IMG/VR virus record: IMGVR_UViG_3300028833_000055
Coordinates: 174,446-238,445 of that record
Length of the DNA: 64,000 nucleotides
Reading direction: 5' to 3' (one strand)
Origin: a virus
Lineage: Duplodnaviria; Heunggongvirae; Uroviricota; Caudoviricetes
Below are positions 22,614 through 59,303 of the stretch, one piece after another. A program made the position numbers and the translations under genes. The notes below the pieces were generated by a model. The model had not been told where the DNA came from, ran no database searches, and saw only the letters and a list, made by a program, of their open reading frames with translations. How positions within the stretch are numbered: position 1 is the stretch's first letter; each line of letters begins with the position of its first letter.

Positions 22614-24488
22614 TTACTTTTTACCGAAAAAGTCACTGAAGTTCGCTCCAAACGGATTGTTCTGTGGGTTTTCTCCGTTCTGTTTCGAATATATCTCCGT
22701 CCCCGCTTCCATAAGGGATTTGTTAAGGATTTCCATACATGCCTTGCACGAACCGGCGTCTTTTTCCTCGAAGGCGTTTTTCAGAGCGTTGATACCGTTT
22801 TCAATCTCCGTTTTCTTTCCTTCGGAAATCTTGTCACCGTTTTCTTCAAGGAACTTCTCACTCTGGAAAATGGTGTTGTCCGCCATATTCAATGTCTGTA
22901 TCCTTTCGGATTCCTTTTTGTCTGCGTCTGCATTGGCTTCCGCCTCCTCTTTCATACGCTTGATTTCGTCATCGGACAGCCCGGAGTTGGATTCAATTCT
23001 GATGTCCTGTTTCTTTCCCGTACCCTTGTCTATTGCCGATACAGTGAGAATACCGTTTGCATCGATGTCGAAGGTAACTTCAATCTGTGGAACACCACGT
23101 CTTGCCGGAACGATACCGTCAAGGTGAAATCTTCCCAACGACTTGTTGTCCCTTGACATAGGTCTTTCACCCTGCAATACGACTATTTCAACTGAAGGCT
23201 GGTTGTCAACGGCGGTTGTAAATGTCTCGGTTTTCTTTGTCGGGATGGTTGTGTTTGCTTCAATGAGTTTTGTCATTATACCGCCTTCGGTCTCGATACC
23301 GAGTGAAAGAGGTGTGACATCGAGGAGAAGAATATCACCAATTGATTTATCACCAGATAACACGGCACCTTGAAGACATGCACCAAGAGAAACCGCCTCG
23401 TCCGGATTCACACTCTTATTTGGTACTTTTCCGAATGTTTTTTCAATCGCCTGTTGTATAGACGGTATTCTTGTTGAACCACCTACTAGTAAAATTTCAT
23501 CTATGTCTGAATTTGATATTTTTGATTTTCTCAAACACTCTTTACAAGTTTCTATTATCTTGTTTGTCAAACCAAATGACATTTCCTCAAATTTACTTCT
23601 TGTTAGTGTTTTTGTAAAATGAACAGGTACACCATCTATACTTGATATATAAGGAAGATTTATGTCTGTTGTAAGTGAAGATGATAATTCTATCTTTGCT
23701 TTTTCTGCGGCTTCTGTCATTCTTTGTATAGCCATAGTATCTTTGGAAATATCAAAATTAGAATTTTCTTTCTTAAATTCATCTATAATCCAATCAACAA
23801 TTAAATTATCATAATCCTTACCCCCAAGATGCAAGTCTCCATTTGTACCAAGAACCTCCATAACACCAGATGAGATATCGAGCATTGTGAAATCGGATGT
23901 TCCACAACCTATGTCAGCAACAAGAACCTTATACTCCTTTTCCGTATCAAGTTTATAACCGAAACTCAATGCCGCCGCCGTCGGTTCGTTTATAACCCTT
24001 AAAACATTTAGACCGGCAATTTCTCCGGCATCTTTAACCGCTTGTCTTGCACTATCACCATAGTATGCCGGGCATGTTATAACAGCATCTGAAACTTCTT
24101 CGCCAAGATAATCTTCTGCTGTTTTTTTCATCTTTTGAAGAATCATAGCGGATATTTCTTGTGGTGAATATGTTTTTCCGTTTACTTCCACATAAGCCAT
24201 ACCGTTTTTACCCTTTATAACATTATATGAAACTCGTTTTATCTCATCAGTAACATCGTCATATTTTTCACCCATAAAACGTTTTATGAACAAAATTGTT
24301 TCCTTTGGAAACATAACACTTTGACGAAGTGCCGGATTTCCTACTTTTATTTCGTTTTTTGCAAACGAAACGACACTTGGTGTTGTAGAACACCCTTCAT
24401 TGTTAAAAATAACTTTTGGTTTTCCTTGTTCCATTACAGATACACAAGAGAATCCTGTTCCTAAATCTATTCCAAGTATATTCTTCAT
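22614..24488 (-). CDS. dnaK: Hsp70/DnaK-family chaperone, full length
   Basis: N-terminal [15 protein letters not shown]...[17 protein letters not shown] matches the Hsp70 phosphate-1 motif; substrate-binding domain [30 protein letters not shown]; 624 aa covering NBD, SBD and lid. Confidence 0.9.
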
Positions 24489-28141: not shown

Positions 28142-28170
28142 CAAAAAGGAGAGGTCTCCCTCTCCTTTTT
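28142..28170. terminator. hairpin terminator between nrdD and nrdG
   Basis: AGGAGAGG-tctc-CCTCTCCT with T6 on plus and an A/T-run on minus; the nrdD stop codon lies within the T-run. Confidence 0.6.
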
Positions 28171-30368
28171 TATTCAATGTCCTTGTTGTAAAATCTCATA
28201 CTCTCTTCAATCTGTCTCGGTTCGGCGAAGTTCTTTACACGCTTCAAATACCCGATTATTCTTGTGAGCTTATCGACATTCTTGCTTCCACAGTGGGGAC
28301 ATTCGTCCAAGTCGTGTTTTGAAATATACCCGCAGTCGTTGCAAGCGGTATTCCTTACATTGTATGTGAAGTAGTTGCAACCTACCGAAGCGGCGTACTT
28401 CAAGAGTTTTCTGTTCTGTTCCTTGTTCAGATGTTCTGCGAGGTTGATGTGGCAGGCGGAACCACCATCGAGATACTGTACATATTCCTTTCCGTGAAGT
28501 TTCATCTTGTTGAGAACACTCAATGAGTCGTCTTCCGGATTGAAGAAATATGACGAGTACATAATGTGCTTTTTACTTACGAAGTAACCGTCCTTCTTGT
28601 CCCAGTTGTAGTTCTTTACCGAAAGGTTTTCGCCAGGTACGAACTCCGTGTTGAACATACAGTCACGAGTCTTGTCCTTTTTGTTGCAGATGTTTATGGT
28701 TTCAAGTATTATGTTGACGAAATTTCTGTAGTCTTCATTGTCTGAACAATCTATTCCAAGAAATTCAGCGGCATCAGTCAAACCGTTTACACCGACTGTC
28801 AAGTACTGTTTTCTCAGGTTTATGAAACCGGCACGATAGATGTCGAGCATATTTGATTCGTGGAAATCCTTGATGATTGAATTGAAGGCGGTCTGGTACT
28901 TGTGTACGTTTTCCGTAACCTCCGTGATGTTGGATTTGATTTTCTCGATGACTCCTTCTTGAATTTCCTTGTCTTGTTTCGAAATGATGAATTTTTCTCC
29001 GAGTGTGAACTTGTAATTGTTTTCTTCGAAATATTCCATAACCGAATTCTGGATAATTCTGTTCAGGTTGATTGTCATAACCGACTTTGAACCGGTGGCG
29101 ACAGAAGCTGTTCCCATAGAGAACTGGTGTGTATTGTGGTTATGTTCTTCATCATTATCCTTCAAAGAATTTCTAAGTCTGCAACACGAACTCAAACTGT
29201 CCGGTGAATCGGAAAGGTATGTGAAGAAAGAGTGTCCTTCTGCATACATCTCTGCTGTGAAGTCTGCATATTCCTTGTCAACCAAGTCGTTACCATCTGT
29301 AAGACACGCCATTGTCTCAACCGGGAATGTAAGGGTGTATCTGGTTCTTTCATCGTTGAACCACTTCATAAATTTCTTCTGCAACCACGAAAGTGTCTCC
29401 CATTTCGGTGCAGTTCCATCCGGAAATCTGAAATCACCGAATACACCTTCAAAATATCCTTTGTCGAAATAACCCACATTCCAGAATACAGTTTGATAAC
29501 CACGGTTTCCAGCGGGCATATTCATAGAATGTACAACCTGCTGGAAATAGTTTTCAATGACCTTTTCAAGTGTCCTTCCTTTTCTGTTGAGTTCAACCTT
29601 CATATCGAGCTTGTCGAGATAGTCGTCACCATAGTCCTGTCTGATGAAATAGTCGAAGTACATAAGGAACTCGGGTGTCGCTACCGCTCCGGCGAACTGT
29701 GAGGATACGGAGTATACGAGATTGATGAACTCACCGCAGAACGACTTCAAGTCTGTGGGGGCTGTTGATGGACCACCGACACCGGTGAGTCCGTTTGTCA
29801 GGAACGGGTACATAGTTATGGCGACACAATACGGCATACCGGGAATCGCCGTCTCGTCGTGTTTGTACAACCTGTGTGTTTCGAGGTCGTATATGTATCT
29901 GTCTGCAAGTTTCTTGCTGTACATCATCTTTATACGGTCATACAGGAGGTATCTGTTCTGTTTGATGTTTTCCTCTTTGTATAACTCCTGACCCATAGTG
30001 ACCACATTCTTGTTGGAGACATTGGCGTTTGCATCGAACTTTGAACCCGTAGCGGCATTGCTCGCCTTTATGTAGTTCTTTATGTAGTCGGATTTCTTTT
30101 TCTTGAAGTTCATATCGCTGTTGATAGTGTCGTACTTGGATATGTAGGCTCTCGCCACCTTCTTGTTGACCGACATCAAGGCGTCTTCCACAAGTCTCCT
30201 TATTTCGGAGCTCGACATATTTTCATATACGAACAAACTGTCAACGACATTCTTTATCAAGTGTTCGTCTATCTCCTCGTTGATTGACTTGTATGCGTCA
30301 ACAATATCATTGAATACTTTATCAACATTGTATTCCTCAAGTGTACCGTCTGATTTTCTTATATTCAT
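28170..30368 (-). CDS. nrdD: anaerobic ribonucleoside-triphosphate reductase (class III)
   Basis: N-terminal ATP-cone (MNIRKSDGTLEEYNVDKVFNDI); C-terminal Zn-ribbon CNDCGY...CPHCGS and glycyl-radical motif TRIIGYLKRV. Confidence 0.9.
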   Translation of the reverse strand: MNIRKSDGTLEEYNVDKVFNDIVDAYKSINEEIDEHLIKNVVDSLFVYENMSSSEIRRLVEDALMSVNKKVARAYISKYDTINSDMNFKKKKSDYIKNYIKASNAATGSKFDANANVSNKNVVTMGQELYKEENIKQNRYLLYDRIKMMYSKKLADRYIYDLETHRLYKHDETAIPGMPYCVAITMYPFLTNGLTGVGGPSTAPTDLKSFCGEFINLVYSVSSQFAGAVATPEFLMYFDYFIRQDYGDDYLDKLDMKVELNRKGRTLEKVIENYFQQVVHSMNMPAGNRGYQTVFWNVGYFDKGYFEGVFGDFRFPDGTAPKWETLSWLQKKFMKWFNDERTRYTLTFPVETMACLTDGNDLVDKEYADFTAEMYAEGHSFFTYLSDSPDSLSSCCRLRNSLKDNDEEHNHNTHQFSMGTASVATGSKSVMTINLNRIIQNSVMEYFEENNYKFTLGEKFIISKQDKEIQEGVIEKIKSNITEVTENVHKYQTAFNSIIKDFHESNMLDIYRAGFINLRKQYLTVGVNGLTDAAEFLGIDCSDNEDYRNFVNIILETINICNKKDKTRDCMFNTEFVPGENLSVKNYNWDKKDGYFVSKKHIMYSSYFFNPEDDSLSVLNKMKLHGKEYVQYLDGGSACHINLAEHLNKEQNRKLLKYAASVGCNYFTYNVRNTACNDCGYISKHDLDECPHCGSKNVDKLTRIIGYLKRVKNFAEPRQIEESMRFYNKDIE

Positions 30369-32799: not shown

Positions 32800-33003
32800 T
32801 TAAAGTCCAAATATAGTGACCACAAGCCACAACACACCCACGAACAACGCCGCTTCAAGGATAAATCCGATAAAGGCCCCGAAGAACTGCAACGGAAAAA
32901 GCAGCAGGAATAAAAATCCTTTCAATACGTCTATCAAAGTTCTTCCGAATAAGAAGTAAAGCACTATAAGGATTACCGCTATGGTTATTATGGTCGAAAA
33001 CAT
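32800..33003 (-). CDS. small membrane protein (2 TM)
   Basis: 67 aa, almost entirely hydrophobic. Confidence 0.4.
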   Translation of the reverse strand: MFSTIITIAVILIVLYFLFGRTLIDVLKGFLFLLLFPLQFFGAFIGFILEAALFVGVLWLVVTIFGL

Positions 33004-33006
33004 AAT

Positions 33007-33390
33007 TTACTCTTCTATGGTTACAATTTTAATGAAATTCTCTTTCTTGAATGAACGGAACTGGTTCTTTTCAAGGTCGTAGTAGTTGACGACATTTTCA
33101 TTCTTCTTCACCGTTTTCTTCTTGTGTTTGAAAAGATACGACTTTCCGTCCTCGCTTTCACCGACAAGTTCGATTTTGTTCTCATTCATATACTCTTCCA
33201 TACTTCCGTATTTCTCGGAGACGAGTGTGTCAACGGCGGTTTTTTCGAGTTCAAATTCGTCCGGTTCTCTTTTTGGGAGCAGGTCTTCTCTGAGTGTTCC
33301 CTTCGCTGTTCTTGTTGTTCCGTCAGTTTTCGTATATTCGAAAATGACTACATTGTTCTTCAATGTTTCTTTAAGTTCTTCTGCATTCAT
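33007..33390 (-). CDS. small protein, paralogue of 24569..25060
   Basis: FEYTKTDGTTRTAKGTLREDLLP...NYYDLEKNQFRSFKKENFIKIV parallels FKFQKRDGSIRKAHGTLHPDFLP...VYYDLDKFAWRSFRSFKFIKI. Confidence 0.5.
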   Translation of the reverse strand: MNAEELKETLKNNVVIFEYTKTDGTTRTAKGTLREDLLPKREPDEFELEKTAVDTLVSEKYGSMEEYMNENKIELVGESEDGKSYLFKHKKKTVKKNENVVNYYDLEKNQFRSFKKENFIKIVTIEE

Positions 33391-33395
33391 ATTGT

Positions 33396-33818
33396 CTAAA
33401 CGTTTAAAGTTGAAATTTCTTCTTCTGTTATCTCTTTTAATTTTCTGTCGAGTTCCTCATCGGTATCGAAATAGAATTTTCTTTTTTCACCATCGACGAA
33501 GTGTATTTCCATCACGGGCCTGTTGTACCAGCTGTCCGTCTTTTCATCGTATCTGATACTATCGTTCCAGTCTTTGATAACATCCTCGATATTACGGAAA
33601 TAATTTTCACTATCTGAACGCCACAGCGTTTCCTTCGCCACACACTTGTGCTGGTAGCAACCGAAAAAGATTTTACGGACAAAATCCTCGTCCGGATAAT
33701 TATCCCACGAATGGGGGCGGTATTCCTCTCCTTTCTCTATCTTCTTTATATATTCGTTTGGACACGAATGTGTGTGATAGATGTGTGAAAACTGTTTGAA
33801 TGTTACTTTACTGTTCAT
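33396..33818 (-). CDS. hypothetical protein
   Basis: Track ORF is 33396..33881; the internal ATG at 33818 (MNSKVTF...) removes the overlap with the upstream gene. Confidence 0.4.
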   Translation of the reverse strand: MNSKVTFKQFSHIYHTHSCPNEYIKKIEKGEEYRPHSWDNYPDEDFVRKIFFGCYQHKCVAKETLWRSDSENYFRNIEDVIKDWNDSIRYDEKTDSWYNRPVMEIHFVDGEKRKFYFDTDEELDRKLKEITEEEISTLNV

Positions 33819-33819
33819 A

Positions 33820-34338
33820 TTATTCTTTTTTTGAAATGACTTTCCAATATTTGTTGTGTATCTCTTTACCATCCACATCACCCCACTTGCAAGGCTTTAT
33901 AACTTCGTAGCAGTCAACATCCGACACAAGTTCGTCGATAATTTCGGGATTTTCCTTCAAAGTTATCTGGAACGCCTTGTTTATCATTCTCGCCTGCCAC
34001 ATATTGACAAGTTTTCTCAAACCTATCATTGAGTTGAAGTCACATAATCCTACCCATATCCATCCATATTTGGTTTTCTTGACGGGTATCAACCTATGGT
34101 CGATATGGTAACACAGACGGTGAAACCAGTGCCACTTGTATGTCGCCCGGTATCCGACAAGTATTTCCTTTATACCTCCGTCCCAGAATGTAAGGAAGTC
34201 ATCTCGATAACATCCCCACTTCTCTTTCCCGCATACTCCGACCTTCGCCCATTTTCTCATTCTTGTTTCAAGAATGCTTATGGCGGAGTACAACTGTTTT
34301 CCGTATTTCTCGAACCATTCGTCTCCCCAGCAATGCAT
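33820..34338 (-). CDS. hypothetical Trp/Cys-rich protein
   Basis: 172-aa ORF. Confidence 0.45.
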   Translation of the reverse strand: MHCWGDEWFEKYGKQLYSAISILETRMRKWAKVGVCGKEKWGCYRDDFLTFWDGGIKEILVGYRATYKWHWFHRLCYHIDHRLIPVKKTKYGWIWVGLCDFNSMIGLRKLVNMWQARMINKAFQITLKENPEIIDELVSDVDCYEVIKPCKWGDVDGKEIHNKYWKVISKKE

Positions 34339-34341
34339 AGC

Positions 34342-34740
34342 TTATTTCTCCTTGTTTTTATAGATATGTTGATTTTTGGGTGATTCGTTGCTTTTCTTTA
34401 TTGAGTCTTCAAATCTCTTTTGCAACTCCCACGCCTTTTCTTCGGTATTTTCACAACGGCAGTGGCCTTTTTTGTAGAACAGTCTCAGATGTCCCCCGAA
34501 AGTGATGTAGAACCACATGCCCAGATATTTTACCTGCGGGTAGAAAAATTTCATACCGTTCCCATAAGCGATTTCGTTGAGTCTCCATTCTGCATCTTTC
34601 AATGCCTTGTAGTTCCAGTAACTGCGTTTGAATATGATACGATGAAGAAATCTTATGACCGGAAAGAAAATCAAAAATAAGAAGACCGTAATTCCGGCAA
34701 CCAGTATAATCATTTTTAAACCCATAAGAATAAAATTCAT
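34342..34740 (-). CDS. membrane-anchored hypothetical protein
   Basis: N-terminal TM helix MNFILMGLKMIILVAGITVFLFLIFF; promoter motif 17 nt upstream. Confidence 0.45.
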   Translation of the reverse strand: MNFILMGLKMIILVAGITVFLFLIFFPVIRFLHRIIFKRSYWNYKALKDAEWRLNEIAYGNGMKFFYPQVKYLGMWFYITFGGHLRLFYKKGHCRCENTEEKAWELQKRFEDSIKKSNESPKNQHIYKNKEK

Positions 34741-34756
34741 AATTCAATTTATTTTT

Positions 34757-34780
34757 CACAAAGATACTATTTTATTTTTG
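34757..34780. promoter_or_regulatory. divergent promoter region holding the conserved motif CACAAAGATACTATTTTA and a plus-strand TATTTTTG box
   Basis: Third motif copy serves the minus gene; an overlapping TAnnTTTG match (TATTTTTG, 34773-34780) lies ~38 nt upstream of the plus-strand vWA gene start. Confidence 0.4.
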
Positions 34781-34817
34781 ATATTCATAAATAATTTAAA
34801 CCAATAAAATATTTTTT

Positions 34818-37163
34818 ATGAATTACTTTAAAGATTTTGATTCTTTTGTTTTTCCCAAAGGTTCGTCAATGATAAATGAGGGTCTGATGGACAATGGAAA
34901 AATTATAAGAGAAACATTTATAAAAAAGGGAAGTAGAACAGTTACTGTAACAAAAGAAAACGGTGAAAAGGAAACAGTGACAATAGACCCGAAAGAAATT
35001 GTGGATACCGTTGAAGATGCAATCAAAAGTCTTTCTTTTGATTTCGGTAGTTTTTTTGATTTTGTAAGTGAATTTACAATAATATATTTTTGGTTTGACA
35101 AGCACTGCAAAACAATGTGTGTGGATGACCATATGAACATATATATTAGTGCTCCTTTTGTTAAATTCGGTCTTAAAATGGACAAAAGACTTATTGGTGC
35201 TGTCGTAATGCACGAAATATTACATGTCGCTTTTAATCATTTGGAAAGAGGAAAAAGATGGTTGGTTTCACAGAATAAACCATATAACAAGGAAACCGCA
35301 CACGATAATAATCTTGCTGCCGATATAGAAGTGAATATTGCTTTAACTCAAAAACATATCATATCTTCCAAAGAACTTGTTTCAGAAATAAAGGGTCTTT
35401 ATTTACAAAAGTATAGTAGTAATGTTCCTCCTATGGAAACTGTTCTTGAAGACGAAGACACTATGAAAGAACTTAGACTTATGTCTCCTCTGGATGAAGA
35501 GGAAAAACAACCACCAAAAGAAAATCAAAATGTCAAAACAACAAAAGAATTTGATGAAGGATATGTTGAAATGAAAAACAAGATAGCAGATATTGTCAAC
35601 AAATATGGTCCCGAAAAGGCCATAGAAAAACTTCGTGAAATTGGAGCGGTTTCCGGTGTTGAACCGACGGTTAGTGATGATATAGATTTTGATGATGTTT
35701 TGAGTATGAATTTTATTGTACTTAAAACATTTGAAGAATTTATAAACGAGTCTAACGAAACGGAACAATTTGATGGTTTCTCAACAAAAGAAGATGGTTA
35801 TAGGGAGGCTATTAGAAAATCTCTTGGTGAAATTATGTCATCGTTGAATCAAGATGACATGGAAGGTGAAGATGAAGGTGATGATGGGGATGATTCGGGT
35901 CAAGAAATTGAAAGCGGAATAAATCAAGATGACCTTAAACCAATGAACTTACCTGGTAAAAAAGGAAAAAAATCAAATGGAAAAGGAAAATCACTCCCTT
36001 CAAATGTAAACCAAAGCAGTGATGGTGAAGACACAGAAGGAGATGAAAGTAAAGATTCCAGTGGTAATAGTAATGGTGATAATAAAGAAGGTGAGGAAGG
36101 TAAAGATTCTAGTGGTAATAAAGAAAGTAAGGGAGGTAAAGGTAATTCAAAAGGTGGTATGTTTACAAACGATGGAAACAGCAGTGAAATAGAAGTATCT
36201 TTTGGCGGTTTAAAAACCGGTGAATTTACCGATTCAAAATCAAGTATGGCCAAGTCTTTGAAAGATACAATTAAAGATAGTTATGGAAAAGATTTTGAAA
36301 AAATTATGGATGTTATAAAAGAAAATGAATCCCTTAACACAAATGAGATGGTTGAAAGGAAACGTGAAGCGGCATTTAATTCTCTTTCTTCTGGGGATAA
36401 ATTAAAAATGCTCTGGAAAAATAGTAAGGATAATGAGAAAAAGTACAAAGCGATGTGGAAGAAAATATTAAAAGAGTTCCTTTCTTTAAAGACAAGAAGA
36501 GCGGGTGAAGATGTCAGGGATAATAGAATAAAATGGGGTGAGAAAAGAAGAATGTCAATAGGTATGATATCACCAAAGAATCTTAAAAAAGCACAAGATA
36601 ATCAAGATTTAAACGTATATGTTGATATTTCCGGTTCGGTGGATATGAAACTTTTGGAACTTGTTGCCCAGTCTCTTACAGTATTTTTAAAACAATATAA
36701 GTATTCTGGAATAAATGTTATTCCTTGGGGTACTGATTCAAACGGGTCACATAGAGTGAGTCCTATTTCAAAAATTGGTACAGAAAAAGCGGCTGCCGAA
36801 ATCATATCATACATAGAGGATGGAATTAATACATTGGGTCGAGGTACGGAGCTTCGTGGGGCTTGTGTTCCGGAATTGATTAAAAATATTGAAAGTATTA
36901 GAAAAAGGGAAGAAGCCGATGATATTCAGATAATAATATCAGATGGTGATACTGGTAGCGACCAAAATGGCATTGAAGAGCTTATATATTCCGTTTTGAC
37001 AGCCAATGGAAATCCAAATAGATTGAGTGCCAAAAATGCAAACATAGCAATTAAGAACTGTATATGGATGTTGTACGATTGTCGAGACGAAGAAAGTTGG
37101 AAACAGGCGATAAAAAATGGAAAACTTGTCTTTATATCAAGTAAGAATTTTATTCCAGAATAA
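34818..37163 (+). CDS. vWA-domain protein with an N-terminal HExxH metallopeptidase-like domain (DUF2201/CobT-like)
   Basis: AVVMHEILHVAFNH zincin motif in the N-terminal domain; C-terminal MIDAS YVDISGSVD; central acidic low-complexity DSSGN/KEGEEGK repeats. Confidence 0.7.
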   Translation: MNYFKDFDSFVFPKGSSMINEGLMDNGKIIRETFIKKGSRTVTVTKENGEKETVTIDPKEIVDTVEDAIKSLSFDFGSFFDFVSEFTIIYFWFDKHCKTMCVDDHMNIYISAPFVKFGLKMDKRLIGAVVMHEILHVAFNHLERGKRWLVSQNKPYNKETAHDNNLAADIEVNIALTQKHIISSKELVSEIKGLYLQKYSSNVPPMETVLEDEDTMKELRLMSPLDEEEKQPPKENQNVKTTKEFDEGYVEMKNKIADIVNKYGPEKAIEKLREIGAVSGVEPTVSDDIDFDDVLSMNFIVLKTFEEFINESNETEQFDGFSTKEDGYREAIRKSLGEIMSSLNQDDMEGEDEGDDGDDSGQEIESGINQDDLKPMNLPGKKGKKSNGKGKSLPSNVNQSSDGEDTEGDESKDSSGNSNGDNKEGEEGKDSSGNKESKGGKGNSKGGMFTNDGNSSEIEVSFGGLKTGEFTDSKSSMAKSLKDTIKDSYGKDFEKIMDVIKENESLNTNEMVERKREAAFNSLSSGDKLKMLWKNSKDNEKKYKAMWKKILKEFLSLKTRRAGEDVRDNRIKWGEKRRMSIGMISPKNLKKAQDNQDLNVYVDISGSVDMKLLELVAQSLTVFLKQYKYSGINVIPWGTDSNGSHRVSPISKIGTEKAAAEIISYIEDGINTLGRGTELRGACVPELIKNIESIRKREEADDIQIIISDGDTGSDQNGIEELIYSVLTANGNPNRLSAKNANIAIKNCIWMLYDCRDEESWKQAIKNGKLVFISSKNFIPE

Positions 37164-37200
37164 TTGAATTTCATAAATAATAAAAAACAATTATATCAAA

Positions 37201-39495
37201 ATGAAAAAATTAAATAATATTCTTAATCGTGAAGATTATCTAAATGCTGTAAATGAAGGAAGAATAGGTGATTTTTTGAAGAGAGGTGTTCAAAAAATAA
37301 AAGAATTATTCTTTATTTGTGCAAAAAAGATAAAAAATATCATTACAGTGTTTGACTCAACAGGAAACATACTTCCTGTCACTTCTCCACAATCAATCGC
37401 AGATTATTTTCGTAACAACAAAGATATCACTGTTGTTGGAACAAAATCTATGAATGACGAAATCAAGAAACTCGGTGGAACCGGATGCAATACAGAGATA
37501 AAACCAAAAACAGAGGATTCATATAAAGATGATTCACCAGATGGTGTTGAATATTTTAAATGGATTGAATCTGGGTATAAAGATTCAAATGTGAGAAAGA
37601 ATTTACTCACACTTCAAAAAATATTTGAATCTAGGAATATACCTATGGAAAACATACTAAACGAAGGGTCACTTAGAAAGGAAGACTCTATAAATTATTC
37701 CGGTAAAGAAACCGAAGAGGTTAAAAATTATTCAACTTTAACAACAGAAAAATTTGAAGAACTTCTTACAGAAAGAATAAATTATTATTGTAAGGACGGT
37801 AAAAACAATAACGAAAAATGGCCCGAAGGATTAGGAAATATGTTAGTTTTAGGTGCACCAGGTATTGGTAAATCAACAATACCGGAAGCACTTGTAATGG
37901 CGTTTAACGAAGAAAAATCCGAAGCAGACAGGATAGCGCTTATTTCCGTAAACTGTGCAAACATCAACCCTGGAGACCTTTTAATGCCAAGAATGCCGAG
38001 AAAAAAAGAGATTTATGATTATGTTACTAATAATTATGACGCTCTGAAAGGTGTAGAATTTATGAAAGATTTAAGTCCAGAAAAAAAGCAATTATTAGCA
38101 AAAGAAATAAACAAAACTGGACAATTTGAGGCGGCAAGTGCTCCACAACCTTGGTTACCTTGTTATAGAATTTCAGAAAACAAATCTCTTAATAGAATAT
38201 TAGATGCTGTTGCAAACGGAAACAAGATGTATACGGGTAAAGATGTTGAAGAAGAGGATATGTTTTCCGGTAAGAAATATTTGGAACCCGGTGTTGAAAG
38301 AACGGGTTCCGGTGGTATAATCCTTTTCGATGAGTTCTTACGTTGTGACCCAAGTATTTTTAATGAATTGATGACATTCCTTCTTGATAGAAGACTTCAA
38401 GGTTGGCAACTTGGTTCAAAATGGTTTATTGTAGCTTGTGCAAACAGACCTTGTGATGATTCGAAATCACAAGCAGGCTGGGAAGAAATAAAGGCGGCAC
38501 CAGCACAAGACCGTTGGTGTCAGATTTTCCATCTCGACCCGAATCCGGAAATGTGGAAAAAATGGGCAAGGAAAAAAGGTTTTGATGAAATTTTGTTGGA
38601 CTTTATGTTTGACGAAGACAATAAAAAAGGTGACGAGTTCTTCAATTGGTATAGAGCATCTGACGCAAATAAAGACAGTGAAGGACACAAACCTGTTACA
38701 CCACGTAACTGGGTTAGAGCACAAGGTGCCCTCATAAACTATATGATTGATAATAAAGATAGGTTTGGAAATGATTATAGTATTTCGAAAATGTCTATAA
38801 ATGAAGTGACAGAAGTTTTAAAGGGATATTTTGACGATACATTTATAGTAGAACTTACTACCTGGTTAAAACAAAATTGTAAAGGTTTAAAAATATCAGA
38901 AGTTATAGAAAAACCATTGACAACACCAATGCCTATAGGTGAAAACTTGAATGAAGTTAAAATAATGAAGAGTTTGTTCAAACAAATGGTTAACAGATAT
39001 ACAAAAGGAAAGAGTAAAATCGCTCCAACAGATGAAGAGTTAACAAACATTATGATTTGGATTGGAAGAAATTTCAAGAAGAATATCAATGTTGTTGCAT
39101 CTGAGTTTATGTATAAACTACATTATGGTTTGAAAGATGTTGGTTTTTGGGATTTCCACAAATTCGGTCTTATGTTTATGGCCGCTTTTCCAGAAGAGGA
39201 TTATATGGAAGTTATAGATTATCCGGAATTGAAAAAATGTTTATGCGATAAATCACATGGAGATGGACGCACAGACTTTTTCTTAAACGAAGATGACGAT
39301 ATTCTTGAAAAGGTAAAAGAATTTGCAAAAGAATTCTTCCCTTGGAGATTAAATAAAAATGGAGATTTATTAACCGTATATGAAGAAGAACCTGTTGAAT
39401 ATGATGCTGATAAAATGAAGAGTGAAACTGAAGCCGATTTAAAAGATGACTTTGACGAACTTGAAAATGAAGCAAAAAATAGAGAAAATAAATAA
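37201..39495 (+). CDS. AAA+ ATPase, MoxR/CobS-like (AAA_5) with a long N-terminal extension
   Basis: Walker A LVLGAPGIGKST; Walker B IILFDEF; sensor-1 region VACANRP; adjacent vWA partner gene. Confidence 0.75.
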   Translation: MKKLNNILNREDYLNAVNEGRIGDFLKRGVQKIKELFFICAKKIKNIITVFDSTGNILPVTSPQSIADYFRNNKDITVVGTKSMNDEIKKLGGTGCNTEIKPKTEDSYKDDSPDGVEYFKWIESGYKDSNVRKNLLTLQKIFESRNIPMENILNEGSLRKEDSINYSGKETEEVKNYSTLTTEKFEELLTERINYYCKDGKNNNEKWPEGLGNMLVLGAPGIGKSTIPEALVMAFNEEKSEADRIALISVNCANINPGDLLMPRMPRKKEIYDYVTNNYDALKGVEFMKDLSPEKKQLLAKEINKTGQFEAASAPQPWLPCYRISENKSLNRILDAVANGNKMYTGKDVEEEDMFSGKKYLEPGVERTGSGGIILFDEFLRCDPSIFNELMTFLLDRRLQGWQLGSKWFIVACANRPCDDSKSQAGWEEIKAAPAQDRWCQIFHLDPNPEMWKKWARKKGFDEILLDFMFDEDNKKGDEFFNWYRASDANKDSEGHKPVTPRNWVRAQGALINYMIDNKDRFGNDYSISKMSINEVTEVLKGYFDDTFIVELTTWLKQNCKGLKISEVIEKPLTTPMPIGENLNEVKIMKSLFKQMVNRYTKGKSKIAPTDEELTNIMIWIGRNFKKNINVVASEFMYKLHYGLKDVGFWDFHKFGLMFMAAFPEEDYMEVIDYPELKKCLCDKSHGDGRTDFFLNEDDDILEKVKEFAKEFFPWRLNKNGDLLTVYEEEPVEYDADKMKSETEADLKDDFDELENEAKNRENK

Positions 39496-39505
39496 AAGAA
39501 TAAAC

Positions 39506-39536
39506 AAAAAGGCGGTCAATCGACCGCCTTTTTTTA
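39506..39536. terminator. bidirectional terminator between convergent genes
   Basis: GGCGGTC-aatc-GACCGCC then T7; preceded by an A-run. Confidence 0.75.
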
Positions 39537-40661
39537 TATCATAATAATATCAAGTTCATCATCAGAGAAACACTCTTCTATAATATCACTTTTGAGATAA
39601 TCCTTTCTCTGCAAGTCGTTCAAGTCTTTCACTTTCTCCTTTATCCCGCATTTCTTGACATAGAGTTCCCATAGAAAGACTTTCTTGTGTTTCTTCAGTT
39701 TCTTTATCGCCTCCGCCTTGCCGGCCTTGTCCTTGTCGAATACATACCTGACATTTTCAGACTCGTCGAAATAGTCGTTCATTTTTTTCGCCCCCTGTAA
39801 CGCCACACAGTTATCGAGAGAAAGACTGTCGATAGGACCTTCCACTATGGTTATGGTCTTGTTCATATTGATATTCATAATGTTGAATATACCGGAGATT
39901 TTCTCTATGTTCGCCACGACATTCTCTATTCCGTCTTCCTCCTCTATGTATTTTTCACCGAGTTCTTTTTTCGAAAATAACTTCTCTATGATTTCCAGTG
40001 AAGTTACACCGAACACATCCTTGTACATCCAGGTGAGGTTTCTTGTAAGGTATCTCGGTTTCTGTGACAACGGGTCGAGCTGTCTTATCTGATACCCTAT
40101 TACCCTGTCGTTCTGTGTGGTGTTGAGTATGTACAGTTCCTTTGACGATGGTCTGTATGCAAAACAGTTCCATTTCGAGATGTCTATCTTTCTGCTTTTC
40201 AGATATGTACTGCACTCCTCATTCTTGTACGGTGATACTATCCCCAGTTTTTCAAATAAAATCTTCTTCGGTATGGCGAGTTCCTCTATCACCGAATACA
40301 CCATAGACGATTGTGTCGTGGCGTATCTTTTTTCGAAATGCTTGGCGTTCTGTTGTATTTCACGAACCGCTATCTTGTCGGAAAGGGAAAGTTCCTGTCC
40401 GAATGTCTTAAGAAGAGAGAGAACACCATAGTGTGAACCGCAGTTATAACAGTGGAACTGCATAGAGTTGAAGTAAAGGTTTCCTCTTTTCTTTCTGCTA
40501 TTATGCAGTGAATCACCACACACGGGACACGAAAAAGCGAACCTGTCGTGGTAAACGTCTATCTTTCTCTTGTTATAACTGTCTTTGGAGAATTTCTTGT
40601 CGAGTATCTTCTGAAGTTTCTCCTGTATGACTTGTATCAAATCATAGTCGGAATCGTTCAT
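39534..40661 (-). CDS. DnaG-type DNA primase (zinc finger + TOPRIM)
   Basis: CPVCGDS...HCYNCGSH zinc-binding region at the N-terminus; TOPRIM-like IVEGPIDSLSL and acidic FDKDKAG. Confidence 0.65.
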   Translation of the reverse strand: MNDSDYDLIQVIQEKLQKILDKKFSKDSYNKRKIDVYHDRFAFSCPVCGDSLHNSRKKRGNLYFNSMQFHCYNCGSHYGVLSLLKTFGQELSLSDKIAVREIQQNAKHFEKRYATTQSSMVYSVIEELAIPKKILFEKLGIVSPYKNEECSTYLKSRKIDISKWNCFAYRPSSKELYILNTTQNDRVIGYQIRQLDPLSQKPRYLTRNLTWMYKDVFGVTSLEIIEKLFSKKELGEKYIEEEDGIENVVANIEKISGIFNIMNINMNKTITIVEGPIDSLSLDNCVALQGAKKMNDYFDESENVRYVFDKDKAGKAEAIKKLKKHKKVFLWELYVKKCGIKEKVKDLNDLQRKDYLKSDIIEECFSDDELDIIMI

Positions 40662-40663
40662 AT

Positions 40664-41137
40664 CTATTTGTTTAAAATGTTGATGGCGTCAACGGCCATT
40701 TCCCAGTCAATACCGCTTTCCCAGCTGCTTTCTATTATGTGTCCCTCTTGTGAGGGAAGCATATCGAAAGTGTCATCGTCTATAATTACATAGTTTGTCA
40801 CTTCCGGATGACCGTTGAGCCACATTTGAATTTCATCACCTCTTCCGTATTTGTCGTGGTCGATTAAATTCGGAGTAACCCCAATCGTATATTCGGACAA
40901 CGAATATGGGTTTCCATCGACATAAGGTGTCTCTGGATTCGTGATATACGATAAAGTACTTTCCAGTGTGTTCATCCTCCAAGAAGAGGATATGACTATC
41001 TTCGCCCCCGTTTCTTTGCAGATATGGGCAATCAAATCCATCTTTTTGGGCATAAGCGCCCAGTTGGATAGATTACAAGTAATCACTCCGTCAAAATCCA
41101 AAAATATAACTTTCATTTCTTTTCTCCTCTTGCACAA
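40664..41137 (-). CDS. HAD-superfamily hydrolase-like protein
   Basis: Motif I KVIFLDFDGVIT at the N-terminus; 157 aa. Confidence 0.45.
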   Translation of the reverse strand: MCKRRKEMKVIFLDFDGVITCNLSNWALMPKKMDLIAHICKETGAKIVISSSWRMNTLESTLSYITNPETPYVDGNPYSLSEYTIGVTPNLIDHDKYGRGDEIQMWLNGHPEVTNYVIIDDDTFDMLPSQEGHIIESSWESGIDWEMAVDAINILNK

Positions 41138-57266: not shown

Positions 57267-59303
57267 ATGCATAATATTTTAGATTTTACCGAATACAAGA
57301 ACCAAGTTAGACTTTATGAGGAAAGACTTGTATTGGAACAAATTAAGACGAGACCCATAAACGAGGGAATGATATTATCGACAATCAGGAATAAGATAAA
57401 CGATAAGGCCACAATCTTCACACAGATGGCTCTTTCGGAAGAGATTGAAATGATGAAAAATCTTGAAAAGGAGATTAAAGCCCAGTTTGGAGAATTGGAG
57501 AAGCACTATGATGAGAAGATGAAAAGACTCAAGAACGCCCCCTATTTCGCCAAGTTCAAGAGAGAGAACCCGAAGGCAAAAGAATTTTACAACGGGTTGA
57601 AAACAAGATTCGAGAGAATCGACAAGGCCAATTTCAATTTCATAAAGATAGTTGAAACCAACCAGGTGGATTTGTCTGCGTTTTTGAAGAACGCCACTAT
57701 GGCCGTTTTCGTAAACTTCGGTGTTATGTTCATACCGACAAGAAGTATATTCTTGTTGAAAAAGGCATATAAGTATTTTATCGGAATCATCAAGCAGACC
57801 ATCCATAAGGATATGCTGTACTTTATGTTGAACTTTGATGATTTCAGAAATGCGGTTCTATTGGATTCACAAGATGAATATGTTCAAGATAGTACTCTTG
57901 AAAAAGAAAAGGAGAAAATTGACCAGGCTGAAGAGATTTTGCAAAGTATGTTAACCAATTCCAATATGTCTTCAAGTGACCGTAAAACCCTTCGAGAAAT
58001 CATAGACCAAAAAATTAAAGTTTCTGAAAGGAGAATGAAACTTAATCAAAATAGTAGGTCTTCAATAAATTTCTCGACAAGATATGACAATACATATAAA
58101 AACACCCTTGAACGTCTGAAAACTTTCTCTATAGAAGACGACCAGAAGTATCTCGAAGGAATCAAGAAAGGTATGCAAGGTCTTGCTCTCGATGAAGTTG
58201 ACACAAAATCATTTGTCGAACTCATAATATCCGCCGCCGAAGAATCTGCGTTTGAAGTTTCGAATGCAATTCATACGGAGTTTATAAAACTTGTCGGATT
58301 CTTCTCGCTTATGGAACAGAAAGAACTTATGGATATGTTGAGAAGAGAAAATAACGAATATGAAAAAATAAAGAAGGAAAATCAAGCAAAGAGAGATAAA
58401 GAACTTCAAACTGAAGCAACTGAAAAAAGAGATAAATTTCTTAATTCGGAAGGACCGAAAATATTCAAAGAAATAGTTGAAGATAATAAGGGTAATGGCA
58501 AAAAACAAAGAGATGCATATTTGAAAATAGGAAAAGAAAAAATAAACGACAAAGACACTAATAAGGATTATACTAAAAAAGAAATTTTTGACGGATGGTT
58601 ATCTCATATAGATAAAGATAGTAATACATATAAAAATTGGAACGACAATCATAAAAAAATAAAACCATTACTTAAACTGTATCTGGATAAGGTTCTTCCG
58701 AATGTTGAGGATGATATTAAGGGAGAAAGTTATCTTAAATATGCAAATTTACTTGTGGATTGTCTTCTTCCTTGTAAATTTGAAGGTAAAAAAATGCTTA
58801 TTGAGAGTGATGATAAAACTGATGATAGTGGGGTTAAAGTTAAAATTGATGATAGTAAACGAGTATGTATAACAAGTTCAGACCCAGAGGGAGTTAAAGA
58901 ATTTAAGATGAAATATATTATAGAAAATCAAAAGTGTGGTTTCACAGTTTACAATCTTGAAAACGCCGATGAAAGAAGAGAAAGATTAAAGGAAATTATA
59001 TTAAGTAAAGAACATGGTGAATTTGTATACGGTAAAGTAAGTCACTCAAAGAAAGAGTTATTAATAGAAGCCCTCGATTTAATTTCAAAAAATATTATAA
59101 AAATTGAAAAAGATATAATAAAAGAAGTTTTATGTAATTTACACATAAAATATAAAGAACATAACGTAACCCCATACTATATATTATCTGATAAAGTGTT
59201 TAATCGTGTGAAAGAAGAATTGGAAAAATTGGAAAAAATGAAAAAAGATGACTATACAGATAAACCTACAAATAACCCCGAAAATTTATTAAAATCGGAG
59301 TAA
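57267..59303 (+). CDS. Lys/Glu-rich hypothetical protein
   Basis: 678-aa ORF, predicted helical. Confidence 0.5.
   Translation: MHNILDFTEYKNQVRLYEERLVLEQIKTRPINEGMILSTIRNKINDKATIFTQMALSEEIEMMKNLEKEIKAQFGELEKHYDEKMKRLKNAPYFAKFKRENPKAKEFYNGLKTRFERIDKANFNFIKIVETNQVDLSAFLKNATMAVFVNFGVMFIPTRSIFLLKKAYKYFIGIIKQTIHKDMLYFMLNFDDFRNAVLLDSQDEYVQDSTLEKEKEKIDQAEEILQSMLTNSNMSSSDRKTLREIIDQKIKVSERRMKLNQNSRSSINFSTRYDNTYKNTLERLKTFSIEDDQKYLEGIKKGMQGLALDEVDTKSFVELIISAAEESAFEVSNAIHTEFIKLVGFFSLMEQKELMDMLRRENNEYEKIKKENQAKRDKELQTEATEKRDKFLNSEGPKIFKEIVEDNKGNGKKQRDAYLKIGKEKINDKDTNKDYTKKEIFDGWLSHIDKDSNTYKNWNDNHKKIKPLLKLYLDKVLPNVEDDIKGESYLKYANLLVDCLLPCKFEGKKMLIESDDKTDDSGVKVKIDDSKRVCITSSDPEGVKEFKMKYIIENQKCGFTVYNLENADERRERLKEIILSKEHGEFVYGKVSHSKKELLIEALDLISKNIIKIEKDIIKEVLCNLHIKYKEHNVTPYYILSDKVFNRVKEELEKLEKMKKDDYTDKPTNNPENLLKSE

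Follow-up and report, generated by a model that had tools for sequence, protein, structure and literature searches.

Gene pair and its boundaries

The window (the whole 64,000-nt stretch of DNA that was analysed, from an uncultured huge phage) contains two large plus-strand genes of 781 and 764 aa. Both flanking genes (34342-34740 and 39534-40661) lie on the minus strand, and the open reading frame coordinates agree in this with the initial annotation. The pair forms a plus-strand unit within a minus-strand replication block, and both GC skew and AT skew change sign across 34-40 kb. The locus is made up of the following features:

34741-34817, no strand: AT-rich divergent intergenic region of 77 nt between the minus-strand gene at 34342-34740 and gene 1
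34786-34794, plus strand: CATAAATAA box, a putative late promoter of the T4 type (-10 'TATA box' variant), 24 nt ahead of the start codon of gene 1
34818-37163, plus strand: gene 1, open reading frame of 781 aa; zincin (DUF2201_N), helical region, disordered linker, helical bundle and vWA (DUF2201-like)
37172-37180, plus strand: second CATAAATAA box, within the gap between the two genes and 21 nt ahead of the start codon of gene 2
37201-39495, plus strand: gene 2, open reading frame of 764 aa; MoxR-class AAA+ ATPase (AAA_5) whose N-terminal and C-terminal regions are specific to the lineage
39506-39533, no strand: bidirectional intrinsic terminator, AAAAAGGCGGTC-aatc-GACCGCCTTTTT, common to gene 2 and the convergent gp61-like primase gene

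The 77-nt region had been described as a divergent promoter region; it is real and carries the conserved promoter-like box, but neither a convincing sigma-70 site nor a Shine-Dalgarno sequence was found in 34741-34817. The gap between gene 1 and gene 2 is 37 nt. The strong bidirectional terminator noted earlier was confirmed as a hairpin whose 12-bp stem is perfect and has an A-run on one side and a T-run on the other (folding energy -19.1 kcal/mol, z = -6.2; equalled by 0 of 200 shuffles), and hairpins of different sequence stand at the same position in the related contigs L001 and L002.

Adjacency, order and synteny of the pair are identical in four independent related contigs (33-58% identity). 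The pair is not the accessory island it had been taken for, but a vertically inherited core block, with perfect synteny throughout the related huge-phage contigs examined. Lak, PTm1 and PAU-type phages, which have been placed in or near group 2.2 (PMC7824862), have genes in common with the window.

Domain organization of the two proteins

Gene 1 was divided as follows:

35094-35492, plus strand: zincin core (DUF2201_N), aa 93-225
35853-36218, plus strand: disordered linker rich in acidic residues, G, S, K and N, aa 346-467, pLDDT below 50
36606-37160, plus strand: vWA domain with complete MIDAS, aa 597-781

The zincin motif, MIDAS motif and acidic spacer reported initially were all located, and gene 1 had rightly been assigned as a zincin and vWA/MIDAS protein, with gene 2 as its MoxR-type AAA_5 ATPase partner. 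DUF2201_N, which Pfam classes among putative metallopeptidases, scored 28.2 bits in gene 1 (Pfam cutoff 23.2) and was above cutoff in 22 of 22 family members. The zincin core is the most conserved part of the protein (mean identity 62%, 26 invariant columns), with HEILH at aa 132-136 and with H132-E133-x-x-H136, H141, D169 and E171 invariant in the 22 sequences. The 122-residue linker (G24 S18 D16 K15 E14 N12) holds the short conserved motifs LKPMNLP (aa 373-379) and LPxN (aa 393-396). Model confidence is low in the segment before the vWA domain. In that domain DISGSVD occupies aa 603-609 and each MIDAS residue (D603-x-S605-x-S607, T677, D709) is invariant; it was not detected by the Pfam DUF2201 model, and its fold matches included the vWA domain of NorD. 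Gene 1 is regarded as the putative adaptor/protease subunit of the pair.

Gene 2 was divided as follows:

37201-37836, plus strand: N-terminal extension preceding the ATPase core, aa 1-212
37837-38610, plus strand: AAA+ core with Walker A, Walker B, sensor-1 and DRW, aa 213-470
37987-38298, plus strand: insert of roughly 100 aa between strand 2 and Walker B, aa 263-366
38611-39492, plus strand: lid and C-terminal part with the 'TPRNW' motif, C-terminal helical domain and acidic tail

AAA_5 scored 28.2 bits (cutoff 22). Walker A is GAPGIGKST (aa 218-226, G218-T226, with K224), Walker B is IILFDE (aa 373-378, with D377-E378), sensor-1 is N415, and R438 within the 'DRW' motif occupies the arginine-finger position. 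These elements are invariant in the gene 2 family, as is the TPRNW motif (P501, R502 and W504) at the sensor-2 position. The insert has an invariant P315..W318-L-P320 motif and a long beta-hairpin at its end. The C-terminal helical domain (to about aa 644) is common to gene 2 and the LR756500 and phrog_1297 ATPases, and the acidic tail (aa 731-764) is variable. The predicted model resembles McrB, MCM and NorQ rings (TMt 0.53 against the NorQ hexamer).

The N-terminal extension, measured at 212 aa, had been singled out as unusual. Identity over aa 1-70 is 56%, on par with the ATPase core, and R10, E19, G20, K43, G55, P59, V60 and Q64 are invariant; this segment folds with low confidence, model confidence being low for the first 60 residues. 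A search of 1.84 billion representatives returned 35 hits and no relatives beyond the N-termini of this ATPase family. By this search the extension is genuinely lineage-restricted, although the Lak megaphages also have it, at the N-terminus of their ATPase.

Relationship to known pairs

From its domains and motifs the pair is very probably an AAA+ machine with two components, of the phage 'MoxR ATPase plus metallopeptidase-vWA' type. It can be assigned with high confidence to the same family as N4 gp24/gp25, phrog_1297/phrog_1314 and Atu_ph07 ASV44729/ASV44728, here in an enlarged form common to Lak-type megaphages. Matches to PHROGs were obtained at E 6e-15 (phrog_1314) and E 7e-25 (phrog_1297). 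In hhalign comparisons the S-TIM5 pair gave 95% and 98.4% probability, the LR756500 pair 92.7% across the vWA region and 99.3% across aa 209-644 of gene 2, and the Lak-C1 ATPase 99.2% against gene 2, N-terminal region included. Single N4 gp24/gp25 sequences matched weakly (61% and 49%), and the N4 link is a transitive one via Pfam, PHROGs and intermediate phages.

The module was found by tblastn in 351 phage records and is often mislabelled "HNH endonuclease" in deposited genomes, including the RefSeq entry for N4 gp25. DUF2201_N plus DUF2201 (VWA-like) beside a MoxR-like ATPase is its standard architecture in N4 gp24/gp25, Atu_ph07, S-TIM5 and LR756500. The peptidase-vWA fusion is common to the whole known module and is therefore canonical, not unusual as first thought; the pair has already been described for group 2.2 jumbo phages (Iyer et al. 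2021, PMC7824862).

The Atu_ph07 pair (ASV44729.1/ASV44728.2; Iyer et al. 2021, Viruses 13:63, PMC7824862) likewise consists of adjacent genes for an AAA_5 ATPase and a zincin (DUF2201_N)-vWA fusion with the zincin N-terminal, comes from the same phage group (group 2.2), and has the same proposed role, virion assembly with proteolysis. Compared with its proteins (429 and 417 aa), those described here are about twice as long and the gene order is inverted, with the vWA protein first; the ATPase differs by the N-terminal extension, the pre-Walker B insert and a longer C-terminus, and the vWA protein by the disordered linker, extra helices and a vWA domain that escapes the Pfam model. Coliphage N4 gp24 (ATPase) and gp25 (vWFA), both from the 14-gene core of N4-like phages (PMC4193335), are also adjacent and have PHROG 1297 and 1314, DUF2201_N and AAA_5 in common with the pair. 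They are very distant, compact (352 and 380 aa) and ordered ATPase then vWA.

The closest deposited relatives are the pairs of LR756500.1 (a 564-aa AAA_5 ATPase and a 491-aa DUF2201_N+DUF2201 protein) and Lak-C1 (a 928-aa ATPase, with TAG read as Gln, and an 851-aa DUF2201_N-like protein), in both of which, unlike here, the ATPase gene comes first. The Lak ATPase has the N-terminal motif region and 'WLP' insert of gene 2; in Lak the two genes are separated by about 1 kb and have in-frame TAG codons. Neither the insert nor the long linker is present in LR756500.

Among cellular systems, NorQ/NorD, CbbQ/CbbO, RavA/ViaA and Rea1/Midasin have ATPases of the AAA_5/MoxR type, like gene 2. Bacterial MoxR-vWA partners have an N-terminal domain, a disordered linker and a C-terminal vWA with a DxSxS-T-D MIDAS, the layout of gene 1, which mirrors NorD; in NorD the linker is remodelled by NorQ and the target is bound by the MIDAS (PMC9976466, PMC13036017). 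Unlike gene 1, none of the partners in these four systems has a zincin domain; the systems act on respiratory or carbon-fixation enzymes or ribosomal assembly factors as clients, and no sequence-level family tie to the pair extends beyond the superfamily. The cited viral precedent, Acidianus two-tailed virus ATV p618 (MoxR-like) and p892 (vWA), is implicated in the development of the virion, at its tails (PMC7824862, PMC7159879); this pair, from an archaeal virus and without a peptidase domain, is likened to the present one by description.

Promoter-like boxes, genomic context and proposed role

At the five loci examined the CATAAATAA box precedes both pair genes in every case (10 of 10 genes), and it is kept ahead of the homologues of both genes in L001, L002, L006 and L007. 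It was observed 9 times against 1.6 expected, a count reached in 0 of 100 shuffles; for CATAAATA, 13 of 14 sites are sense-oriented and no more than 60 nt ahead of a start codon, in a window that is 97% coding. In sequence the box is similar to TATAAATA, the T4 late promoter, and to ATAAATA, the late motif of jumbo phage CBB (PMC5259590); in T4 relatives the -13 position of late promoters varies (PMC2988020). It also stands at a homologue of annotated neck proteins and at the head of an operon encoding an endolysin-like protein, and is absent from the flanking genes for primase, UvsW, WYL_2, guanylate kinase, Cpn10 and Hsp70. The 'late' label of the CATAAATA box is based on T4-motif likeness and a few annotated co-regulated genes, and some non-structural genes are also driven by T4 late promoters. 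T4 early and middle transcripts are all of one polarity and late transcripts may be of either (PMC2988020), which is consistent with a plus-strand pair inside a minus-strand replication block. This distribution bears on the timing of the pair and is the new evidence of this analysis.

The pair of the huge phage LR756500.1 is part of a neck/terminase operon, 21 nt downstream of a neck-protein homologue and upstream of the terminase genes. Together with the boxes, this location favours a late, morphogenetic chaperone-protease role. Judged from the motif, the pair may in this phage lineage be transcribed late from T4-type late promoters and would then most likely act in virion morphogenesis, a tentative reading held at slightly less than even confidence. 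A role as ordinary virion assembly chaperones had been raised at the outset; the context does favour morphogenesis, and the functions given to the homologues are proposed ones.

Against the morphogenetic reading, N4 gp24/gp25 are middle transcripts (PMC4193335), and nucleotide-metabolism or replication genes, not structural ones, stand beside the pair in several phages: dCTP deaminase in N4; DNA polymerase I, glutaredoxin and RnlA in Atu_ph07; ThyX and Hsp20 in S-TIM5; dUTPase and thymidylate synthase in RG-2014; and NrdD, guanylate kinase, the gp61-like primase, UvsW and gp32 in this lineage. The same facts would suit a replication-phase or host-takeover machine that works on cytoplasmic proteins of host or phage during the middle phase, for instance by degrading or remodelling host factors or by clearing replicating DNA of proteins. 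That account is unlikely, as the late-type box is on both pair genes and absent from the surrounding replication genes, the pair is on the strand opposite to them, the LR756500.1 pair sits between neck and terminase genes, and core conservation across phages of Proteobacteria, Cyanobacteria and Bacteroidota speaks against a host-specific target.

A maturase or activase, inserting metal into or reactivating a phage enzyme (NrdD, deaminase, ThyX) with HExxH handling metal and not acting as a protease, would match the function of most characterised MoxR-vWA pairs (PMC9976466, PMC13036017, PMC7159879), the recurrent nucleotide-metabolism neighbours and the NorD layout of gene 1. It is nevertheless improbable: no one enzyme is consistently adjacent across lineages, the invariant E133 is a signature of catalysis more than of metal storage, the domain's Pfam class is peptidase-like, and the late-promoter and neck/terminase contexts do not fit. 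Marginally less probable still is the defence or conflict link first proposed, in which the pair would sense or neutralise host defence like the MoxR-vWA ternary conflict systems. Couples of this kind do form the core of conflict systems in bacteria, occasionally together with peptidase effectors (PMC7159879), and the ATPase has a lineage-specific N-terminal domain; yet no known defence system was matched above noise in PADLOC, none of the third components (VMAP, iSTAND or FtsH) stands next to the pair, perfect synteny and vertical inheritance differ from the patchy distribution typical of conflict genes, and the pair is core in all N4-like phages (PMC4193335). The suggested likeness to CobS/CobT cobaltochelatase subunits, as in cyanophage cobS, comes from the shared AAA_5/vWA pairing and is effectively refuted by family searches: neither Pfam nor NCBIfam gave a hit to a CobS or CobT model, gene 1 has a zincin domain absent from CobT, and the nearest relatives are DUF2201 pairs.

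For the favoured late, morphogenetic role, a mechanism was drawn up by analogy with NorQ/NorD, CbbQ/CbbO and Rea1. Gene 2 would form a hexameric ring, on which one copy of gene 1 may dock via its vWA domain and the conserved basic segment before it. The MIDAS metal would grip an acidic side chain of a client protein, and ATP hydrolysis would pull or twist the long disordered linker, so that the client might be remodelled and offered to the tethered zincin active site for cleavage. The putative site of action is virion morphogenesis, that is neck, head or tail assembly with proteolytic maturation, as proposed for the jumbo-phage pair by Iyer et al. 2021 (PMC7824862). Identity, mechanism and late morphogenetic role taken as a whole are given an even chance. 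The pair is a distant, double-sized, order-swapped version of a known phage module and not a new kind of system; the lineage-specific N-terminal domain of gene 2 probably adds client or partner recognition.

Layout and synteny of the unit

The window derives from an uncultured huge phage, and two of its plus-strand genes, designated gene 1 and gene 2 and separated by 37 nt, very probably encode a phage machine composed of a MoxR ATPase and a zincin-vWA protein. The unit and its boundaries are arranged as follows:

34342-34740, minus strand: ORF flanking the unit on the gene 1 side
34818-37163, plus strand: gene 1, ORF of 781 aa
37201-39495, plus strand: gene 2, ORF of 764 aa
39506-39533, shared: terminator hairpin, perfect 12-bp stem with an A-run and a T-run on its sides
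39534-40661, minus strand: ORF flanking the unit on the gene 2 side (convergent primase gene)

The sign of both GC and AT skew reverses over 34-40 kb of the window, in line with the strand switch at these genes. The hairpin at 39506-39533, common to gene 2 and the convergent primase gene, was predicted by folding at -19.1 kcal/mol (z = -6.2), and hairpins of different sequence were located at the same position in related contigs. A sigma-70 promoter scan of the divergent region upstream of gene 1 returned no convincing site.

The pair was found adjacent, in identical order and strand, in four independent related metagenomic contigs (L001, 387 kb; L002/L003; L006, 260 kb; L007, 117 kb) whose proteins are 33-58% identical to those of the window, with adjacency kept at each of L001, L002, L003, L006 and L007. 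One side of the pair is always occupied by NrdD, guanylate kinase and WYL_2 genes on the minus strand, and the other by a convergent gene for a 373-aa Toprim protein, related by tblastn to primase-type genes of T4-like phages, followed by Cpn10 and UvsW. From this fixed synteny the pair was concluded to be a vertically inherited core block and not a mobile accessory island. The term "island" used in the initial annotation, taken as an accessory element, was therefore not borne out by the fixed position and synteny in the four related contigs, and a mobile or accessory defence island was rejected on the basis of perfect synteny and vertical inheritance.

The junction between WYL_2 and gene 1 is the variable point of the otherwise fixed block. 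In the window it is filled by three small minus-strand ORFs (161, 172 and 132 aa; 33396-34740), none with a family match and the 132-aa ORF with an N-terminal hydrophobic segment; in L001 and L007 WYL_2 adjoins gene 1 directly, and in L006 one 122-aa ORF lies in between. The NrdD gene also varies, being intein-free in the window, lengthened to 1136 aa by a LAGLIDADG-domain intein in L001 (505-3915) and L007 (3059-6469), and accompanied in L006 (428-3311) by a separate intein-like ORF. The full-length Hsp70/DnaK of the window, and a Cpn10/GroES-like gene near the pair in L001, L006 and L007, indicate several phage-owned chaperone systems. HAD_SAK_2 domains also occur in the "Swiss Army Knife" proteins of RNA repair.

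Other annotated genes of the window
16371-17354, minus strand: T4 gp32-like ssDNA-binding protein (E 2e-10)
22614-24488, minus strand: Hsp70/DnaK, 624 aa (Pfam HSP70, E 1e-228; phrog_22485)
28170-30368, minus strand: NrdD, 732 aa
31223-32764, minus strand: flotillin/SPFH (Band_7 + Flot) protein, 513 aa, with N-terminal membrane anchor
32800-33003: small hydrophobic ORF adjoining the flotillin/SPFH gene
33007-33390, minus strand: WYL_2 (Sm-like SH3) protein, flanking the unit
40664-41137, minus strand: HAD_SAK_2 phosphatase-like protein (E 7e-22), flanking the unit
48156-49037, plus strand: DUF285 repeat protein (E 9e-66)
61624-62640, plus strand: endolysin-like-domain protein (E 5e-18)

Domain architecture of the two proteins

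Gene 1 matched Pfam DUF2201_N (PF13203) over aa 94-188 at 28.2 bits (curated gathering threshold, 23.2 bits), and the model was matched by 22 of 22 family members scanned. Residues H132, E133, H136, H141, D169 and E171 are invariant in an alignment of 22 gene 1 sequences (33-75% identity); the HEILH motif lies at aa 132-136, and this HExxH aligns with the equivalent motif in the S-TIM5 and Lak proteins. An inactive pseudo-peptidase appears improbable from the invariance of HExxH, and this reading was rejected. A complete MIDAS (DxSxS...T...D) is formed by D603, S605, S607, T677 and D709, all invariant in the 22 sequences, with DISGSVD at aa 603-609. Neither the VWA nor the DUF2201 (PF09967) model was matched in a Pfam scan of gene 1 (E <= 1), and PF00092 was weakly matched by 5 of 22 relatives (best E 0.0017). 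The family profile was in MIDAS register with TRAP and integrin I-domains, its match to PDB sequences being marginal (TRAP vWA, E 0.06), and gene 1 aa 546-712 aligned with aa 300-444 of the LR756500 protein (hhalign, 92.7%, E 4e-7), in which the DUF2201 domain spans aa 345-478 (E 3e-18).

The AlphaFold2 model of gene 1 (mean pLDDT 69) was divided into four predicted parts:

aa 27-345: confidently modelled N-terminal alpha/beta and helical region
aa 346-467: predicted disordered linker
aa 476-555: predicted helical bundle
aa 597-775: predicted Rossmann-like domain

The vWA region is modelled with a Rossmann-like vWA fold. The linker (window 35853-36218) comprises 122 residues and is rich in G, S, D, K, E and N. 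Its short motifs LKPMNLP (aa 373-379), LPxN (aa 393-396) and T467-G468 are fully or almost fully invariant at 33-75% identity, the rest being poorly conserved, and these motifs could be docking or cleavage sites.

Gene 2 matched AAA_5 (PF07728) at 28.2 bits against a cutoff of 22. The match spans only aa 365-400, its shortness being due to an insert of roughly 100 aa (aa 263-366) that lies between strand 2 and Walker B and is missing from the LR756500 ATPase. Walker A is GAPGIGKST (aa 218-226) and Walker B is IILFDE (aa 373-378). In 34 gene 2 sequences (33-86% identity), G218-x-x-G-x-G-K224-S and D377-E378 are invariant or nearly so, as are N415 ("ACxNRP"), D437-R438-W ("DRW") and P501-R502 ("TPRNW"); N415, R438 and P501-R502 are taken here to be the sensor-1, arginine-finger ("DRF"-like) and sensor-2 ("SPR"-like) positions, respectively. 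The AF2 model of gene 2 (mean pLDDT 75.8) gave McrB, MCM, NorQ (TMt 0.53) and sigma-54 activators as best Foldseek matches, and the gene 2 profile matched PDB sequences marginally (FlrC AAA+, E 0.011). In the model Walker B is preceded by a long hairpin (aa 341-368) and strand 4 by a short hairpin (aa 402-408), and on this modelled structure gene 2 is placed in the AAA+ clade with beta-hairpin inserts (helix-2 insert/pre-sensor-1 hairpin). The quoted motifs of both genes were all found and the initial domain reading, zincin-vWA plus MoxR-type AAA_5, was correct; of the HMM matches that it anticipated, AAA_5 and DUF2201_N scored above cutoff and VWA was unmatched on the window protein itself.

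The ATPase core of gene 2 is preceded by an N-terminal region of 212 residues, the first 70 of which are about as conserved as the core (56% vs 60%) and are modelled with low confidence. When 1.84 billion representative proteins were searched exhaustively by phmmer for this N-terminal region, only 35 matches were obtained, all starting at residue 1-2 and all being ~680-790-aa proteins of the gene 2 family or fragments of these.

Relatives in other phages and the putative late-type promoter box

Near-identical DNA searches of 34000-40000 against 50,697 phage records gave no match. A tblastn search of gene 1 against the same records (E <= 1e-3) was also empty, so cultured relatives were reached via profiles. 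PHROGs assigned gene 1 to phrog_1314 (E 6e-15) and gene 2 to phrog_1297 (E 7e-25). In its compact canonical form this pair comprises a MoxR-like ATPase (330-560 aa) and, directly after it, a DUF2201_N + DUF2201 (VWA-like) protein (380-490 aa); this form is carried by cyanophage S-TIM5, the 462-kb huge phage LR756500.1, Agrobacterium phage Atu_ph07 (ASV44729.1 and ASV44728.2) and coliphage N4 (gp24 and gp25). By tblastn the LR756500 DUF2201 protein was found in 351 deposited phage genomes, namely N4-like podophages, 350-kb enterobacterial jumbo phages, Pseudomonas and Vibrio phages, and cyanophages. In profile-profile comparisons the gene 1 zincin matched the S-TIM5 protein (95% probability, E 3e-8), and gene 2 matched the S-TIM5 MoxR-like ATPase (98.4%, E 5e-15) and, over aa 209-644, the LR756500 ATPase (99.3%, E 4e-20). 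Direct comparison with the single N4 sequences was weak (61% and 49%), and the relationship to N4 is therefore transitive. The fused peptidase, described initially as unusual, proved to be the normal state of the known pair in S-TIM5, LR756500, Atu_ph07 and N4.

The MoxR plus metallopeptidase-vWA pair has already been described, with a proposed role in virion assembly with proteolytic processing, and group 2.2 of that study takes in Lak-B8, Tenacibaculum PTm1 and Atu_ph07 (Iyer et al. 2021, PMC7824862). The 14 core genes that N4-like phages share include gp24 and gp25 of N4, which are expressed from middle transcripts (PMC4193335, PMC2784036). Literature searches found no experimental study of any family member. 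An "HNH endonuclease" label is attached to phrog_1314 in PHROGs and in many deposited genomes, including gp25 of the N4 RefSeq record NC_008720.1; judged by the Pfam and profile evidence this is evidently a propagated mis-annotation, and phrog_1314-type genes should be relabelled. We know of no family member that has been assayed for peptidase activity.

Compared with the canonical pair, both window proteins are about twice as long, and the vWA protein comes first in the window whereas the ATPase comes first in N4, Atu_ph07, S-TIM5, LR756500 and Lak. An additional N-terminal subdomain is present in gene 1, where the zincin core is also separated from the vWA domain by about 360 residues that include the 122-aa disordered linker, and gene 2 has a longer C-terminus than the canonical form. 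These differences in order and size are of arrangement and not of domain content. Stop-codon recoding has been reported for Lak phages, and consistent with this the homologue of gene 2 in phage Lak-C1 (L005, MK250029.1; 6272-9058), which is broken up by in-frame TAG codons when translated with code 11, gives an uninterrupted ORF of 928 aa once TAG is read as Gln; no recoding is needed for gene 1 or gene 2 in the window lineage. The Lak-C1 ATPase aligned with gene 2 residues 17-469 (99.2%, E 2e-19, profile-profile), an alignment that takes in the N-terminal motif and the "WLP" insert, and is followed by an 851-aa DUF2201_N-like protein. Since the Lak-C1 ATPase is likewise long at 928 aa, enlargement of gene 2 is not unique to the window lineage. 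Homologues are carried by metagenomic contigs as long as about 400 kb; through other genes the window is distantly connected with the LR7565xx huge phages, with Lak megaphages and with Bacteroidota phages of the PAU, PTm1 and MaF61 types, and the lack of Shine-Dalgarno sequences fits Bacteroidota-type hosts.

One 12-mer, TTCATAAATAAT, lies ahead of both start codons. The 12-mer as a whole is not significantly enriched (3 sites vs 1.75 expected), but its 8-9-mer core is, CATAAATAA being observed 9 times against 1.6 expected, a count reached in 0 of 100 shuffles; this core is read as a regulatory motif. The box, CATAAATA(A/T), lies just upstream of genes with no -35 element, and in sequence it looks like the T4 late promoter TATAAATA with C at -13. 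T4 late promoters have no -35 element, and relatives of T4 differ from one another at the -13 position; late transcripts of T4 can run in either polarity, whereas all its early and middle transcripts are of one (PMC2988020). Of 14 CATAAATA sites in the 97%-coding window, 13 are sense-oriented and <=60 nt upstream of a start codon.

CATAAATA(A/T) sites in the window
minus strand: 11782, 13065, 15037, 22557, 27655, 56440, 57220, 60608
plus strand: 34786, 37172, 43385, 57232, 60582

In the window and four related loci CATAAATAA stands 20-37 nt upstream of both genes of the pair (10 of 10 genes), and the neighbouring primase, UvsW, WYL_2, guanylate kinase, Cpn10 and Hsp70 genes are without the box. 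The box-headed gene at 9813-11750 has homologues annotated as neck proteins in Tenacibaculum and Chryseobacterium phages, that at 60613-61617 leads an operon containing the endolysin-like-domain protein, and operons for large Ig-domain proteins begin with the box in L002 and L006. The putative CATAAATA regulon consists mostly of uncharacterised large proteins; tblastn of gene 57267-59303 gave no match, and most box-headed genes have no family in Pfam or PHROGs, so a class was assigned only to the neck-protein homologue and the endolysin-linked operon. The plus-strand "island" inside the minus-strand replication block is, on these sequence grounds, best read as a putative late transcription unit.

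In LR756500.1 the canonical pair occupies an operon-like order in which a terminator hairpin and a AATAAATA box are followed by a homologue of the window's neck-protein gene (E 6e-74). The AAA_5 ATPase comes next after 21 nt, and the DUF2201 protein after a further 6 nt; downstream of the pair lie a gene weakly resembling TerS and a fragment of TerL.

Possible function of the pair

NorQ/NorD is among the best-studied MoxR-vWA pairs. NorD has an N-terminal specificity domain and a disordered linker that is remodelled by the ring; its vWA domain, at the C-terminus, contacts the target through its MIDAS and sends a finger into the pore (PMC9976466, PMC13036017). By analogy, gene 2 would form a hexamer, and one gene 1 molecule would dock on this ring via its vWA domain and the conserved basic segment that precedes this domain (aa 561-596). 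The MIDAS metal of gene 1 may then capture an acidic residue of a client protein, and ATP hydrolysis would pull on the disordered linker so that the client is remodelled and presented to the tethered zincin site. Both the late-type promoters and the location beside neck and terminase genes favour virion proteins as clients, which accords with the proposal of Iyer et al., and a late morphogenetic role of the pair is held tentatively, at slightly less than an even prospect.

A replication-phase or host-directed role is unlikely, and draws on the neighbours of the pair, which are nucleotide-metabolism or replication genes in N4, Atu_ph07, S-TIM5, RG-2014 and the window lineage, and on N4 gp24 and gp25 being middle genes, which counts against late timing. 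T4 late promoters also drive some non-structural genes, a further point against the late-timing argument. A counter-defence function is very improbable, PADLOC, Pfam and NCBIfam giving it no support (in PADLOC-DB gene 1 had no match and gene 2 only a 14-bit P-loop match to RtcR/PspF, E 0.004). The CobS/CobT likeness suggested in the initial annotation is also remote, and a CobS/CobT cobaltochelatase was rejected, since no CobS or CobT model was matched in Pfam (E <= 1) or NCBIfam; a maturase is likewise very improbable.

The MoxR plus zincin-vWA pair recurs in the largest known phages. What is new here is an enlarged, order-swapped variant shared with Lak-type megaphages, together with promoter and operon evidence on function, namely the T4-late-type promoter box conserved upstream of each gene of the pair and the neck/terminase operon context in a related huge phage. 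Variant, box and context together provide independent support for a late morphogenetic chaperone-protease role. A more speculative and rather unlikely reading is that the module, in the window as in N4-like and jumbo phages, represents an uncharacterised class of split ATP-dependent metalloprotease, in which a MoxR ring would power a MIDAS-guided zincin. In function this would be a two-polypeptide counterpart of FtsH or Lon that captures its substrates through a metal. In the Lak-type megaphage lineage the ATPase would have acquired a further N-terminal domain for recognising clients or partners, and the protease a long, disordered tether bearing motifs, gains that could allow the module to work with the phage Hsp70/Cpn10 chaperones in assembling an exceptionally large virion. 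If such ATP-coupled, MIDAS-guided proteolysis is true, the pair would be a new type of two-component AAA+ protease, and a conserved step in the building of large virions would be explained.
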